A stretch of 31,179 nt of DNA from a virus (lineage: Duplodnaviria; Heunggongvirae; Uroviricota; Caudoviricetes): positions 1 to 31,179 of the IMG/VR virus record IMGVR_UViG_2609459857_000004; one strand, written 5' to 3'. A model generated the notes under the pieces. That model had not been told where the DNA came from, did not search any database, and saw nothing but the letters and a program-made list of their open reading frames with translations. Within the stretch, counting starts at the first letter, position 1. Every line of letters starts with the position of its first letter. Position numbers and translations under genes: made by a program. Shown piece after piece: positions 1 to 16,081 of the stretch.

Positions 1-1020
1 CTACTTACTGACCACAAGCGGTAAATCCAGTGTTGGGGTGATTTTGGTTTTACGATCGTAAATCAACACCTGATTTTCTGTTTTGTGTCCACTGAAAATT
101 TGTTTGTCGCGACTGCTGCCTTCGTAATCTGAAATCCCTTTGGCTTTTATGTCATGGAAGTTGCACCCAAACGGAACGCCGGCTTTTTGCTCGGCTGCAC
201 GTTTAGCCTGATTCCACCAGTTGTTCAGCGTCTTGGCTATTACCTTCCCGCCTTTGGTTGTGTTGATCACATACTCGCATGTGCCGGAAGATACATTTCG
301 GGCTAACTGGATCGCCGTACGTAATCGCGGAGACCATTCCTTGATTTGTTTAGTGCCGGTCTTGTTTTGCTCAATGTAAATCCCTTTATCCATAATATCC
401 TGCCATTTCAGCTCGAGTACATCACCGAGCCTTGCCGCACAAAGATAGGATATCTCCATTGCAATACGTAACTGTGGAATTGCTTCCGCATATATTGCAG
501 CATACTGTTTATCGGTGATGTAAACAGTACGGGCTTTAAGTGTGAATTTTCTGACTCCTTTGCATGGATTATTTTTCACATACCCACGCTCATATCCCCA
601 TCCGTATACACGGCTCAGACTTGCCAGTTCATGGTTTGCCTGGGTCTTGCTCTCAAGTCCTCGCTTATCCATGAAAATTCTTACCTGTTCAATTTTTACA
701 TTATCAGCAAGCACTTTTCCGAATACTGCCAACAATGCCCTTTGATGTTGCCGATAATCTTTTTGGGTTCGGGGGGCCAGTTCTGTAAATGCAGGGGAGT
801 CCATAAACATGTGCCATAATTTAGCGACGGTCATTATGTCGTGGAGTTTTGCTTTTTCCAGCTCATAATTTTGCCAGACTTTAGCTACGCTGGTTTCCCG
901 CACTCTTCCGAGCCCTATAGTTCTTGTGCTTCCTTCGGGTTTCCATACGTAACTGTAACCATTCGATCTAACACGCGGTGGTAGTGCATTATCTTTTTTG
1001 TTTTTTCTTGGTCTTCCCAT
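1..1020 (-). CDS. int: phage integrase (tyrosine recombinase)
   Basis: 339-aa ORF whose stop codon is the first 3 nt of the window; C-terminal region has an LIYDR-type tyrosine motif typical of tyrosine recombinases; small xis-like ORF overlaps its 5' end. Confidence 0.8.
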   Translation of the reverse strand: MGRPRKNKKDNALPPRVRSNGYSYVWKPEGSTRTIGLGRVRETSVAKVWQNYELEKAKLHDIMTVAKLWHMFMDSPAFTELAPRTQKDYRQHQRALLAVFGKVLADNVKIEQVRIFMDKRGLESKTQANHELASLSRVYGWGYERGYVKNNPCKGVRKFTLKARTVYITDKQYAAIYAEAIPQLRIAMEISYLCAARLGDVLELKWQDIMDKGIYIEQNKTGTKQIKEWSPRLRTAIQLARNVSSGTCEYVINTTKGGKVIAKTLNNWWNQAKRAAEQKAGVPFGCNFHDIKAKGISDYEGSSRDKQIFSGHKTENQVLIYDRKTKITPTLDLPLVVSK

Positions 1021-1240
1021 TGTTCAGCGCCTCAAAATCGGGTTCAGCAGAAACCAGTTCAGATACTTTCGACATTGCTGTCAGCCCGTGCGGAACATCC
1101 CGGCGAAGAACTATTGGTTCGTTTTTAGGTCCGATTACAAACGGGATGCCGTGCAGCCTTAGCTGGTGTTGCTGTCTTGTGTATCGCTCGTATCTTGTGA
1201 TCTCTTGAATCTCTGCTGGCGATAGAGTTAATTCGTACAT
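989..1240 (-). CDS. putative excisionase / recombination directionality factor
   Basis: 83-aa basic ORF immediately upstream of int, overlapping the int start by 32 nt (classic xis-int arrangement); assigned by position and size, not lambda-Xis-like in sequence. Confidence 0.4.
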   Translation of the reverse strand: MYELTLSPAEIQEITRYERYTRQQHQLRLHGIPFVIGPKNEPIVLRRDVPHGLTAMSKVSELVSAEPDFEALNNGKTKKKQKR

Positions 1241-1306
1241 GTGGTCACGTGCCTTACAGCATGACCGCCGCCAATATAATTCGGAGGCGGCGATCAGGGT
1301 TGAACA

Positions 1307-3763
1307 TTAAAAATCAACCGGATTCGGGATCAATTTTTGCCAGATTGCTGAAACGTATTTTGCCTGGTGATTGGCGTCATCCAGTGCATTGTGGGGTACA
1401 CCTTCGAACGGGATAGCTGTTCTGGCATCAAAACCGATGGTTTTTCCCAGTTCAACAATTGTGCGCACGTCGCGATCGTTGCAGTAACGCCACGGGCAGG
1501 GGATCCCCTGCCGTTCATATGAACGGCGTAAAATTGCGTTGTCGAAAGTTGCACCATTGCCCCATACCTGCACGAATTTTTCATCTGAATGCTCGCTGAT
1601 GAATTCCCTGAATTGCAGCAGCGCATCATCTAATGGGATTTGATTTACCAAAATTGCAGATCTGACCTCGCTGGACTGCACCAGCCACCATTCGATTGTG
1701 CTTATGTCGACAGTGCCGCCACCGGTTTTTGCATCAATCGTTTTGCTGAACTCCGGCCCCATCTCTCCGGTTTCGGGATCAAAAAATTTACCGCCAATAG
1801 AGTTGATTGGTGCATCAGGGTTTGTTCCCATCGTTTCAAGGTCGACCGAAAGATGATTCCATACTCTGCTGGTGGATGTGATAACGTGATGACTGTTCAC
1901 CGTAATTAAGGGATCCGCCGTCTCGCCAGTTTCACTATCGCTGGCGTTGTCCTGAGCGCTGCCAGCATTCTCCTTGTGTGGATGTTCAGCGCCTTCCATT
2001 TCCTCCGGATCATTTTCCTGAACTTCAACCTGATTCTCTTCATTGAATGTTTCCTGGTATGTTGCGTCGCCCATCACCGCGCCACAATCAGGGCAGTTGC
2101 CGCCACCGCTCTGACCGCAGGCGGTGCAGACTTTTTCCGGTTCCTGTTGCGCTACTGGTTCGGATTGTTTCGTTTCTGGCTCGTTTTGTAACGCATTTGA
2201 GCTGTTTTGTTCCTCTTTCTGGTCGTTCTGTTCCGTTTCTTGCTGGTTCTGGTTCACAGAATCGCGGGTTTCAATCCCCTTCACCCATTTCGGATCATTC
2301 GGGTCGCTAATCCCTGCAACAAATTCACCGCGAGAGGCCGCAAGCAACTTATCGGCGTCAGGCTGGCTGATATTGGCTGCCTGCATAATTTTGTTTACTT
2401 CGTCAGCGGTAACTTTTACCTGATTAACTGGATCTATCTGTGCCTGAGCATCCAGCGATTGCGTGTCCTGGCGATGTTCAGTTGTATCCGGTTCCATTGT
2501 TTCAGCCGTTGCCTGTTCATCTGCCATTGCGTCAGACGGTTGTGATTTTTCCTCATTATTTTTTTCTTCTTCTGTCTCGCGTTCAGCAGCCAGTTCGCGG
2601 TTAACTTCTTCCAGGATATCTTTTTCCGGTGTATGTCGTGCAGCAGCGAGAGTTTCCTCGGTAGGGTTCTCGTGATCAGTCTCCGTTAAATAGGCGTTGA
2701 TATACCCCTGAAGGCGTCCCGGGTAATGATAAAACTCAGGGTGTGCGCTCCGGATAAGTGCAAAAATAGCGGCGCGGGAATAATCCAGGATACCCGGGAT
2801 TGCGCGAAGTGCTGCGGACCATTCTTTGAACGGACTTTCTTTCTTCTGGACGACTTCTTTTGCGCGACGATAAACGCTGCCCGGAATTTCATAAATATTA
2901 AAATCCATCGGAAGTGTGGCCGCTGCAATCTCCACATCCAGCGTATCGAAGGTGTGTACTAAATTCGGATTGCGATCGGTTTTGTTCCCTCCACCGGCAT
3001 TAGCGCCGGAAGCCGTGCGGGTGATACGAGAAACACGATTTCCTTTCATCCACTCTTTTGTCAGCAGACCGCGATCGGTGTAGTCAGCGCCCAGGTATGC
3101 TTCGAAAAAAGCAGTCATTAGCCCCAGGCCTGAATTGCCAGGATTAGGGAAAACTTTGTCAGTATCACGCACCAGTTTGTGGAGATCGCGAATTTCCAGT
3201 GGATCGAGCAGACTGGTTTTATGCGAAATAGCGAGGGCAGTAACAGCTGGTAGTTCTTCAGCCCGTGCAATGTGTAATGCCTGGAGTTCGTCGCGTGAAA
3301 CGTGCGTTACCGGTTTTTCGCTGCCACGTTGAGCAAGCCAGCGAATGGGCAGTTCCTGACCGGAAACCGGCAGGAGCATGTTCTCCTCAATCTCAGCCAT
3401 GTCTTCGCCGTTGACGTTGGTATTGTCAGTGCTGGCTGGTTTATCCTGAACAGAGGGCGAGGGCGCGATAAGTACCATTGTGATACCATCTTCTCCGCCT
3501 TTTTCGTATCGGTTGCAGAATTCGGTATCAAACACGCCTTCCGGAGGAAGGTCATTCACAACGGGTAAATGGACGCGAACAGGTTTTTTAAAATCCTCTT
3601 CGTCAAATCCGGCATCGTCCATTGCGACAACACCGCGTGATATTGCAACCGATAATTTTTTTGCTGTGCGCCAGTAAAAACCGCCTTTAATCCCAAGACG
3701 TTTTCTGACTTTGTCATTTTTGGCTTCGTAATATAGTGCAATTTCTTCTTTATCAGCGCTCAT
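1307..3763 (-). CDS. RecE-like prophage exonuclease with C-terminal DEDDh (DnaQ-like) 3'-5' exonuclease domain
   Basis: 818-aa ORF with RBS GAGG upstream of ATG; C-terminal ~190 aa carry Exo I (VDLETMG), Exo II ([11 protein letters not shown]) and Exo III (HNALDDA) motifs; N-terminal region recalled as RecE-like, with an acidic low-complexity E/Q/N-rich linker. Confidence 0.65.
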
Positions 3764-3853: not shown

Positions 3854-4045
3854 TTAAAGCCCTGCCGGGACTTCGTTATTATCCATGCGAATAACTTTAT
3901 CGACCGGATAACAGTTACCGGGAATTTTCTGTTCCGCTGCGGCAGCCATGCATTCTTTCATTGAGCTGTATACGCCAGTAACCGTGTCAACCGGTTCGCC
4001 GGAAACAAGAAAAACCGTCAGAACAAGTGCAAATGTGGTATTCAT
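3854..4045 (-). CDS. small secreted/membrane-anchored hypothetical protein
   Basis: 63 aa from internal ATG (MNTTFALVLTVFLVSG...), hydrophobic N-terminal signal-like segment; ATGA start/stop overlap with upstream ORF. Confidence 0.45.
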   Translation of the reverse strand: MNTTFALVLTVFLVSGEPVDTVTGVYSSMKECMAAAAEQKIPGNCYPVDKVIRMDNNEVPAGL

Positions 4046-4230
4046 TGCCAGTATCCTTTTTGCATCAGACGTAAACGGGCCAGCATTGAAACAATGCATA
4101 TTTGATTTAATAACTCCCGTTCGTGTTTTCTCTTATTAATGGCATCTTCAGTAAATGCAGGGTTACTGATACTGACACCAATTTCAAAACAACCTTCAGA
4201 CGTATTAACGTTTGGTAATAATGTTTCCAT
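4042..4230 (-). CDS. hypothetical early-operon protein
   Basis: 62-aa ORF with GAGGA RBS 8 nt upstream of ATG; translationally coupled to the next ORF. Confidence 0.45.
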   Translation of the reverse strand: METLLPNVNTSEGCFEIGVSISNPAFTEDAINKRKHERELLNQICIVSMLARLRLMQKGYWQ

Positions 4231-4796
4231 TATCGCGTCCTCAACAATGAATTTTGTGATGCGGTGCCTGGTGCCTCCAGGTGACGTTAACCAGTTAACA
4301 ATTAACGCCGGAATACAGGGAAACCAACTCCATAAAACAAATACGGAGTACCGATCACTTTTTTAACTGTTCCGCGTGCGCTGAGCCGCATTCACCGCAT
4401 CACAAAATTCACTTTAAAAAGGGCGGACATCAGCCAGCAATGAAACTGATGCCGCCAAAAGGTAATCAACATGGGTTGTTGCAGCGGGGTTGTCACTTAA
4501 GCGTATGGTCAACCTGACAACCCGGTGTTATCTCGAGGAAAGGATAGCCTCGCCATACTTACCGCCGCGCCATTTCGCGGAGTGCCACAACCGGAAGCGC
4601 ACGGTCGAATTAAATTTAACGACACCGTACAGTGAGACGAACTTCGCCGTGCGCTTTCGCGTTATGCCCTGACTTTTCAGGGATATATCCTTTCAGTAAA
4701 CTGTCAGTGCCGGATGCTCACCCGTGTCCGGCGCACGACCACACGTGGCAGCGTGTTGGTCTCCATTTTTAACCCAGAACCCAAATGGAGGATAAA

Positions 4797-5027
4797 ATGT
4801 CAGAACAATTTAACCCCCTGCGGAGACCTGCCTCAGCAGCACAACAAGTCGTGCTTGAAGTTGTTCGCGCGGGTAAGTTGTACGAAAAACACAACTTTCT
4901 GAACTTTTTACACACATGCTTGACCATTACCGTGCTGAGGCGAAACGCCTGGAGCAGGAAAATAAAGCTCAATAAAAGCTGCTTTAATGATCTGAGCCAG
5001 TATGATTGCTGGCTCTTTTTGTGTTGA
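4797..5027 (+). CDS. hypothetical small protein (possible opposite-strand moron)
   Basis: ATG preceded by GGAGGA at 8 nt; ORF ends just after a plus-strand intrinsic terminator; overlaps convergent minus-strand ORF 4908..5105, so only one may be real. Confidence 0.3.
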   Translation: MSEQFNPLRRPASAAQQVVLEVVRAGKLYEKHNFLNFLHTCLTITVLRRNAWSRKIKLNKSCFNDLSQYDCWLFLC

Positions 5028-5105
5028 ATCCAGGTCTGCTAATTTTTGACGAAGACAGTCTGCAGCTATAACCTGCAAATCTGCAGGTAAATCTTTAAAT
5101 TCCAT
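4908..5105 (-). CDS. hypothetical small protein
   Basis: 65-aa ORF with GAGG RBS 8 nt upstream; N-terminal 45 aa look protein-like; 3' end overlaps the plus-strand ORF and terminator. Confidence 0.3.
   Translation of the reverse strand: MEFKDLPADLQVIAADCLRQKLADLDSTQKEPAIILAQIIKAAFIELYFPAPGVSPQHGNGQACV
4994..5022 (+). terminator. rho-independent terminator (plus strand)
   Basis: 7-bp stem GAGCCAG/CTGGCTC with 8-nt loop followed by TTTTTGTGTT. Confidence 0.5.
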
Positions 5106-5127
5106 TATTAGCCTCGTTGGTTAGCTA

Positions 5128-5346
5128 TTAACGCGGGTATGTAATCATTCTGGCAATGCTTAATGCCGCTGCTTTTTCCAGCTTGGTTATATCTTTTTCC
5201 AGAGCGGACAGATTTTCAGCCTGCTTAGCCCTGGCTTCATTGGCCCATTTCAGATCCTGCGCTGCATTAATTTTCTGGCGCATCCACTCATAAAGTTCAT
5301 CATCGGTATAGTCTGGCGCGATGATGACGGGTTCTCGTTTCTGCAT
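5128..5346 (-). CDS. hypothetical early-operon protein
   Basis: 72-aa ORF, GAGGA RBS 7 nt upstream of ATG, charged helical composition. Confidence 0.45.
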   Translation of the reverse strand: MQKREPVIIAPDYTDDELYEWMRQKINAAQDLKWANEARAKQAENLSALEKDITKLEKAAALSIARMITYPR

Positions 5347-15927: not shown

Positions 15928-16000
15928 GCCGATTTAACTTAGCAGACAAAGCAACTGACTTGTAATCACCGGGTCGCCAGTTCGATTCCGGTAATCGGCA
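15928..16000 (+). tRNA. tRNA-like gene, anticodon UGU (Thr) with weak D and anticodon stems (possible pseudo-tRNA)
   Basis: 7-bp acceptor stem GCCGATT/AATCGGC, T-loop TTCGATT, anticodon loop CTTGTAA at canonical positions 32-38; anticodon stem only 3 of 5 pairs; followed by CTA not CCA. Confidence 0.4.
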
Positions 16001-16006
16001 CTATAT

Positions 16007-16081
<75 letters not shown>

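Follow-up and report, generated by a model that had tools for sequence, protein, structure and literature searches.

The window, by which we mean the whole stretch of 31,179 bases analysed here, contains an operon with a repressor, ydfA, ydfB, ydfC, a 65-aa ORF, a gap, dicB, a DUF1482 gene and an exonuclease VIII gene, and the same order is found in E. coli K-12's Qin prophage and in phage Tritos. The repressor is an HTH protein, upstream of which comes a divergent Cro/YdaS-like gene, YdfA belongs to DUF1391, and on the minus strand downstream of dicB the DUF1482 protein occupies the position of YdfD, ahead of the exonuclease VIII-like protein. The segment from 4231 to about 4745 aligns over its full length with the minus-strand, non-coding ydfC-dicF-dicB segment of Qin. 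By its sequence, the interval is the non-coding ydfC–dicF–dicB processing region of the dicBF cell-division-inhibitor operon, which is real but ordinary and already known. The DicF/dicB processing region, to which the inverted repeat described below belongs, has been known since 1990.

In comparison with the K-12 Qin dicBF operon (ydfABC-dicF-dicB-ydfD; Faubladier 1990; Balasubramanian 2016; Ragunathan 2023) the gene order is identical, and over the non-coding block identity among related loci amounts to 85-96% (about 85% for K-12 itself). A long helix upstream of DicF is common to both. However, the window has about 330 bp extra between ydfC and the conserved block, with the 65-aa ORF remnant, and the central arm of the RNA junction described below differs as well. 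At genome scale, the stretch has BLAST matches in 4,728 of the 5,426 complete E. coli genomes, and every time dicB is annotated beneath the match. For the finer comparisons we used 8 genome loci and 80 viral-contig loci that encode DicB relatives. The features of the region are collected in Table 1.

Table 1. Features of the ydfC-dicF-dicB interval, in window coordinates
Feature	Position	Strand	Basis
dicB, 62-aa cell-division inhibitor	4045..4230	-	Pfam DicB PF05358, 130 bits, full length; named dicB in related RefSeq/phage records
dicB leader, Shine-Dalgarno GAGGA 4242-4238	4231..4245	-	directly after the 3' arm of the repeat; read from sequence
Helix 3' arm (repeat arm 4248-4266 plus 2 nt)	4246..4266	-	folds, pair counts
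STnc100-like four-way-junction domain	4259..4400	-	Rfam RF02076, consensus fold
Helix 5' arm	4393..4413	-	folds; inferred RNase III cut ~4402
DicF-slot sRNA/intrinsic terminator, allele B; hairpin 4455-4422, U-run 4420-4416	4416..4471	-	Rfam and terminator scan
DicF-precursor hairpins 4487-4523, 4536-4550, 4565-4580	4484..4580	-	consensus fold (42 distinct sequences) and single-sequence fold
Upstream RNase III helix, ~23 bp with small bulges, arms 4666-4644 / 4608-4586	4586..4666	-	consensus fold
Upstream end of the K-12 Qin-conserved block, 3' UTR of the upstream genes	4667..4745	-	alignment with K-12 and Tritos

An earlier reading made from the sequence only had described 4231-4790 as gene-free. 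This is right for proteins, for which the gap in fact extends from 4231 to 4910, and the view that 4231-4790 holds no credible ORF was borne out on both strands, none being conserved among relatives. It is not right for RNA: a DicF-type sRNA gene lies at about 4421-4471 on the minus strand. At the upstream end of the interval, the conserved 3' UTR block folds into small hairpins (4711-4724 and 4669-4680 in the consensus fold). As to the insert at 4797-5105, PHROG matches suggest that its minus-strand ORF is the N-terminal remnant of a longer protein, and its plus-strand ORF has weak N-terminal PHROG matches only; for the coding strand as read from variation, two near-identical copies were compared. 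A tblastn search of the insert against phages gave no match, and a gene on the opposite strand at the position of the insert in SLK172 is unrelated.

The DicF-type gene takes exactly the place of dicF in K-12, between the conserved ydfC 3' UTR block and dicB. It matches the Rfam model DicF (RF00039) over its full length (model positions 1-52; 34.1 bits, E 3e-5), and lies under the gathering threshold of 48 bits, where K-12 scores 76.7 and Tritos 72.5. At gathering thresholds Rfam reports only two tRNAs in the window, and both DicF and the STnc100-like domain need a permissive E-value search. A terminator scan finds a Rho-independent terminator at the same place, with a stem at 4453-4426 followed by CGCCCTTTTT and a folding energy of -21.0 kcal/mol. 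This allele, which we call allele B, retains the GGCGG/CCGCC base of the hairpin and the U-run, whereas the 5' single-stranded part, the upper stem and the loop differ from K-12; its 13-bp stem is more stable and it does not have the ACUCCG anti-ftsZ loop. With a crude whole-molecule duplex method, allele B paired with ftsZ (-60..+30) at -27.2 kcal/mol against a shuffle mean of -30.4, giving no sign of anti-ftsZ pairing, whereas K-12 DicF reached -38.5 kcal/mol against a shuffle mean of -33.3. Allele B may be either a DicF paralogue with other targets or a mere terminator.

Allele B occurs in 108 of the 5426 complete E. coli genomes, and in the 12 records listed no feature is annotated beneath it. 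Among the 88 loci the slot holds at least five alleles: the K-12 type in 29, the window type in 19, a third type in 36, and two rare ones. The nucleotide diversity of the slot is 0.30. This hypervariable DicF slot, with at least five alleles, is possibly new.

Directly downstream of the slot stands the most conspicuous structure of the interval, for which a perfect 19-bp inverted repeat with arms 126 bp apart had been claimed. Its coordinates and exact complementarity were verified: TGAATTTTGTGATGCGGTG at 4248-4266 recurs as its exact reverse complement at 4393-4411, with a spacer of 126 nt. It had also been judged to be beyond chance, and when the sequence was shuffled 100 times with its dinucleotides preserved, two matches did not appear in any shuffle, even at a tolerance of 3 mismatches. 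No other inverted repeat in the whole window reaches 16 nt with its arms no more than 400 nt apart. In the minus-strand transcript a G·U pair and an A-U pair prolong the repeat to 21 continuous base pairs (4413-4393 with 4266-4246), which start 3 nt past the U-run of DicF and end 3 nt ahead of the Shine-Dalgarno sequence of dicB. The 21-bp helix is recovered in the single-sequence MFE, the centroid and the consensus folds, and the region 4225-4480 has a folding energy of -99.8 kcal/mol (z = -6.3). Pairing of the DicF U-run with the dicB Shine-Dalgarno sequence, which also appears in the consensus fold, consists of three G·U pairs and one A-U pair and was judged too weak.

All 86 loci that hold both arms form the 21-bp helix. 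It is also formed in two further loci (L035 and L079), where a Rha-like gene of 284 aa has been inserted right behind the 3' arm, ahead of the dicB Shine-Dalgarno sequence, and a locus without DicF (L021) still has the helix beside dicB. Nine types of substitution were seen in the arms, and none is a double change. Six of them, found in 39 loci, turn a Watson-Crick pair into G·U, and the three that abolish pairing are singletons; nearly all arm changes are from G-C to G·U. In K-12 Qin the arms are identical to those of the window except for two positions, which are G-C pairs in the window and wobbles in K-12. Nucleotide diversity is 0.013 and 0.028 in the two arms and 0.023 in the dicB leader (85 loci), as compared with 0.043 at codon positions 1 and 2 and 0.081 at position 3 of dicB. 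No double-compensatory change was found in the outer 13 bp of the helix among the prophage copies, because these copies are too alike; support for the outer helix therefore consists of conservation and wobble tolerance. Absence of the repeat from related prophages, lack of conserved pairing and a conserved coding frame had been named as refuting findings, and the RNA reading survives these: the repeat is present, its pairing is conserved, and a reading frame is not.

How does this helix relate to the known processing of DicF? According to the accounts given in later papers (Balasubramanian et al. 2016, PMC5069750, and a review of 2022, PMC9438474, both citing Faubladier 1990), RNase III makes the 3' end of the 72-nt DicF in K-12. 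The ends of the 72-nt and 190-nt species used here come from such summaries, and the cut coordinates are accurate to a few nt only because these ends were mapped by length. Counting 19 nt from the annotated 3' end of K-12 DicF leads to the point between GUGAAUUUUGU and GAUG, which is window position ~4402, in the middle of the 5' arm. As the end of the 72-nt DicF falls there, the repeat is to be read as the helix between dicF and dicB on which RNase III acts. The downstream site was looked for as some two helical turns (at least 20 bp) of continuous double-stranded RNA in the read-through transcript, just 3' of the DicF terminator, and this is what the 21-bp helix provides. By sequence and position, the repeat helix is orthologous to the downstream RNase III site of K-12. 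A partner cut at ~4257 would leave dicB with a leader of about 27 nt. By analogy with K-12, the same cuts would be expected in this prophage, as would their consequences for dicB expression. In the accessible part of a transcriptome-wide RNase III map (PMC6212723) DicF appears only as a citation.

The sequence-only reading had further noted a second, imperfect stem of 14 bp. Its first arm (4595-4609) holds, but 4633-4646 is not complementary to it, and the true partner is 4645-4659. The pairing extends to the longer upstream helix of Table 1, with a hypervariable loop (4609-4643) and two double-compensatory pairs among 42 distinct sequences (4651/4600, CG to UA; 4648/4603, GC to AU). Ragunathan et al. 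2023 (PMC10448788) showed that a 190-nt DicF species is lost in an rnc mutant and that RNase III makes its 5' end. In the window, the 5' end of this precursor maps to ~4597-4592, within the 3' arm of the upstream helix; the helix stands ~137 nt 5' of the DicF 5' end and contains the mapped end, as the upstream site should. Hence both structures that had been flagged are the two RNase III sites that bracket DicF. Between them lie the precursor hairpins, which are conserved and one of which (4536-4550) shows one compensatory pair, A-U to G-C.

The RNA enclosed by the 21-bp helix has a structure of its own. It matches the Rfam family STnc100 (RF02076) at model positions 21-154 with 33.7 bits and E 3e-5, which is under the 47-bit gathering threshold; model positions 1-20 and 155-206, of which ~165-206 form the terminator, are unmatched. 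In the consensus fold an inner closing helix of 8 bp leads into a junction from which three hairpins (4374-4389, 4283-4309, 4267-4281) and a hypervariable arm (4313-4360) branch off. Its parts are a GCGGC/GCGC hairpin, a GGA/UCC stem that carries the hypervariable arm, a hairpin formed by GGCGUUAAUUG and UGGUUAACGUC, and a CCUGG-AGGCA-CCAGG hairpin. The nested palindromes seen earlier, CCTGGTGCCTCCAGG at 4267-4281 and GTTAAC at 4286 and 4294, are indeed there and turn out to be two of these hairpins. Nucleotide diversity is 0.27 in the variable arm as against 0.016-0.022 elsewhere in the junction.

More distant BLAST matches extend the comparison beyond dicB. Junction copies of 75-79% identity occur in ~165 plasmids, mostly of ~90-97 kb and non-mobilizable. 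The three plasmids that we fetched are P1-type phage-plasmids, two of them typed IncY, and here the unit lies 38 nt 5' of a TerB-family gene that matches P1 tciA; these copies score 39-43 bits against STnc100. As in the dicB leader, the junction domain is found directly upstream of a small gene of the host-interference type. However, in the tciA leader the closing helix stops at 8 bp and a DicF-type sRNA is missing upstream, for which reasons it would not be an obvious RNase III substrate. With the P1-type copies included, 98.4% of cells in the alignment are paired, compared with 29-40% for slid controls. With these copies three pairs carry double changes, among them a switch from A-U to U-A in the closing helix and one from U-A to G-C in the CCUGG hairpin; beyond the inner 8 bp and a single hairpin the copies are not informative.

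The relationship to STnc100 also holds in the opposite direction. A reciprocal covariance model (R1), built from dicB-leader and P1-type units only, recovers all genuine STnc100 copies full-length (34 loci, fetched with a published STnc100 primer) with 48-66 bits and E values of 1e-11 to 1e-16, and a scan of the window with the same model gives one copy. In a genuine STnc100 copy, which scores 132 bits and is located in the late region, a terminator belonging to the RNA itself comes after the same junction. STnc100 and the window unit share the GAAU junction, three or four hairpins radiating from it and, without variation, the CCnGGAGGCACCnGG hairpin, and their 8-bp closing helices compare as xxGCGGUG / CACCGCxx in the window unit and GCAUGGUG / CACCAUGC in STnc100. 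STnc100, however, stands alone as an sRNA of the late (Q / stx / lysis) region and brings its own terminator, whereas the window unit is internal to an early operon, has no terminator, and has its closing helix extended to 21 bp so that it runs into the dicB ribosome-binding site. Because the defining terminator and the late-region context are missing, we regard the window unit as a relative of STnc100 and PasD and not as a member of the Rfam family. Only in the dicB context does the closing helix reach 21 bp instead of 8, and it is this lengthening that turns the unit into an RNase III substrate. PasD, a relative of STnc100, has been described as a prophage sRNA from RIL-seq on Hfq and a northern blot (Zhu, Shabalina & Storz 2026, 10.64898/2026.05.13.724894), and STnc100 has been detected by RT-qPCR in outer-membrane vesicles (PMC12370729). 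The homology of the RNA enclosed by the helix to STnc100, as indicated by these model searches, is possibly new.

Taken together, the interval is very probably the non-coding part of a lambdoid prophage's early-left operon, of dicBF type, in which the transcript is processed; it is made up of a DicF-slot terminator, a 21-bp duplex cut by RNase III and a second RNase III helix. Transcription would run from right to left, from a repressor-controlled promoter upstream of ydfA/B/C. The transcript would carry ~270 nt of conserved structured RNA and then the DicF-slot hairpin, which would serve both as sRNA body and as intrinsic terminator. Where polymerase reads through, the transcript would at once fold the repeat into the perfect 21-bp duplex that closes the four-way junction, and cleavage of this duplex by RNase III would detach the sRNA and the upstream RNA from the dicB-ydfD message. 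Such a cut would leave dicB with its leader of ~27 nt and free a junction RNA of ~145 nt. At the upstream helix, RNase III would generate the 190-nt DicF precursor, which RNase E would then trim. In K-12 RNase III, as well as RNase E, is known to process DicF (PMC10448788).

This arrangement has a general parallel in the early mRNAs of other phages. RNase III sites are found in lambda, in the N-leader and at sib, and in the T7 early transcript (R1-R5). Like these, the structure proposed here is a long intergenic double-stranded RNA in an early operon, whose cleavage would separate RNAs and reset the 5' end of the downstream message. Unlike in lambda and T7, a trans-acting sRNA would be among the products, and the substrate is not a bulged hairpin but a perfect 21-bp duplex that closes a multi-branch junction.

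Three explanations had originally been offered for the repeat: a structured ncRNA, a MITE-like remnant bounded by terminal inverted repeats, and a site for a recombinase or invertase. The first is right in essence, the region being transcribed, non-coding and highly structured, with a DicF slot and two RNase III helices, and the other two fall. To a DNA-level element of either kind we give next to no credit, although the perfect 19-bp repeat does bound a 126-bp segment whose centre varies between prophages, and the Rha-like gene has gone in precisely where the 3' arm ends on its outer side, with a duplication of CAAAATTCA flanking it. A MITE should have duplicated its target site, but the flanks of the unit differ (AAAG versus TTGT) and the window holds one copy only. 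In E. coli prophages the unit is always located in the dicB 5' leader, and its P1-type and STnc100 relatives have no long arms. As for an invertase, the ~88 loci are all collinear and no inverted variant was found among them; in one of them DicF is missing, and in two a gene is inserted after the 3' arm. The operon encodes no recombinase-like protein, the neighbours being DicB, DUF1482, exonuclease VIII, YdfA/C and HTH regulators. Moreover, the helix coincides with the RNase III cut mapped in K-12, and the variation in the arms tolerates G·U, which is a signature of RNA. The collinear loci, the absence of inversion and of flank duplication and the G·U-tolerant variation are why both the MITE and the recombinase site were rejected. 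Hardly more credible is a small protein starting from a conserved AUG inside the unit (4391-4389; MRLSARGTVK...), where no other AUG recurs. The AUG and the first 10 codons are found in all 42 distinct spacers, two of which have one amino-acid change there. However, the products would be only 12-30 aa long and, taking the conserved 3' block as reference, their ends are spread over all three frames, no suitably spaced Shine-Dalgarno sequence precedes the AUG, and the AUG lies at the foot of the 21-bp helix. We attribute the invariance of the AUG to RNA structure.

At the level of RNA it might be possible, though we hold it to be somewhat unlikely, that helix and junction mainly serve the downstream gene in cis and that cleavage is secondary; they could stabilise the 5' end, offer ribosomes a standby or decoy platform, or couple translation. 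This overlaps with the processing region proposed above and does not exclude it. The junction precedes the start codon by 31-38 nt in two unrelated contexts, dicB and tciA, and it stays with dicB in the locus where DicF is missing; one hairpin shows an invariant loop containing GGAGG, and junction and loops are conserved as strongly as the arms. But the Rha-like gene inserted in two loci sits between the element and the dicB Shine-Dalgarno sequence, so close spacing to dicB is not obligatory, and in genuine STnc100 copies the same domain is followed by a terminator and not by a gene. It is unlikely, on the other hand, that the ~145-nt junction RNA accumulates after excision by RNase III and acts in trans, by Hfq/ProQ base-pairing or protein binding, in which case the hypervariable arm would set the specificity. 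The STnc100 homology in both search directions, the description of STnc100 and PasD as prophage sRNAs, and an invariant scaffold with a single hypervariable arm would all fit such a role; yet the unit lacks the STnc100 terminator and the 5' and 3' extensions, and RNAs that RNase III leaves with a 5'-monophosphate are usually short of stability. Equally doubtful is the wider idea that the two RNase III helices form a fixed scaffold around two exchangeable cassettes, namely the DicF slot and a junction RNA excised as a second dicBF regulator. In this idea, the hairpin and seed alleles of the DicF slot would be mutually unrelated and mostly missed by Rfam and by annotation. If the scaffold idea were true, the junction module would have been recruited three times, once each for a stand-alone late sRNA (STnc100/PasD), for the leader of dicB and for that of tciA in P1.

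In conclusion, we assign a structured region of this prophage to the dicBF processing region; what possibly remains as novelty, the kinship of the dicB leader with STnc100 and the hypervariability of the DicF slot, are side observations. Standard annotation is blank over the region even in a RefSeq genome that is 99% identical (L093), because allele B lies below the Rfam cut-off, so that counts of DicF-type sRNAs in E. coli prophages come out too low. The comparison links three prophage RNA elements that were formerly treated apart: the dicF-dicB spacer, the STnc100/PasD family and the P1 tciA leader. With its invariant helices and hypervariable inserts, the region offers a natural system for phage sRNA seed swapping in a constant processing frame.

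The DicF slot, where a DicF-type small RNA or terminator hairpin is found, is hypervariable, and at least five distinct hairpin alleles occur there. Only a GGCGG/CCGCC base and a U-run are common to these alleles, of which the K-12 type was found at 29 loci, the type of the window at 19 and a third type at 36, while two others are rare. Diversity reaches 0.30 in the slot versus 0.013-0.028 in the flanking arms of the predicted 21-bp RNase III helix. The allele of the window lacks the anti-ftsZ loop and scores below the Rfam DicF threshold. Among 5,426 complete E. coli genomes, 108 carry this allele, and in the 12 listed records no annotated feature coincides with it.

Coordinates of the features discussed
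Feature	Position	Strand	Location
DicF slot	4416-4471	-	window; compared across loci L011-L090
Promoter-like site	4769-4798	+	window, moron slot
Strong SD+ATG	4787-4799	+	window, moron slot
Annotated 65-aa ORF	4911-5105	-	window, moron slot
Good terminator	4994-5015	+	window, moron slot
Two adjacent tRNA genes	15928-16078	+	window
Rha-like gene insertion	612-1490		L035; also L079 and E. coli hit H26
Junction domain copies	~2000-2120		L094-L096, P1-type phage-plasmids
Tandem STnc100-like domains	2326-3350		L100; also L103, L111, L118, L128

Certain prophages have a Rha-like gene of 284 aa inserted precisely where the helix 3' arm gives way to the Shine-Dalgarno sequence of dicB, and the gene is flanked by a duplication of CAAAATTCA; this placement marks the outer edge of the helix as a recombination or mosaic junction. 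At another dicB-region prophage locus, L021 (~1325-1345), the DicF hairpin is wholly absent and coding sequence stops just 5' of the helix 5' arm, yet the complete 21-bp helix and the junction are retained upstream of dicB. Hence the element travels with dicB and not with DicF.

Window positions 4745-5130 form a variable 'moron' slot, with ydfC on one side and the conserved block of non-coding sequence on the other. Its annotated ORF looks like a remnant, since it matches longer PHROG families over their N-terminal ~50 aa only. The plus-strand start, promoter-like site and terminator together suggest a small opposite-strand gene or antisense transcript of ~200 nt, and in strain SLK172 the same place holds an unrelated opposite-strand gene. 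The tRNA pair presumably belongs to the tRNA cluster of the prophage late region, and in this window it is not followed by a genuine copy of STnc100.

The repeat-enclosed RNA (window 4259-4400, minus strand) shares homology with the junction domain found in the prophage sRNAs STnc100/PasD. On several viral contigs, two to five STnc100-like junction domains follow one another in tandem within ~1 kb, and the second, higher-scoring copies may be PasD-type paralogues. About 165 plasmids hold a copy that is 75-79% identical; in the three fetched from among these, P1-type phage-plasmids of which two were typed IncY, the domain lies 38 nt 5' of a TerB-family gene, at the position of P1 tciA. As the dicB leader, STnc100/PasD and the P1 tciA position share this domain, they represent one RNA module in three contexts.
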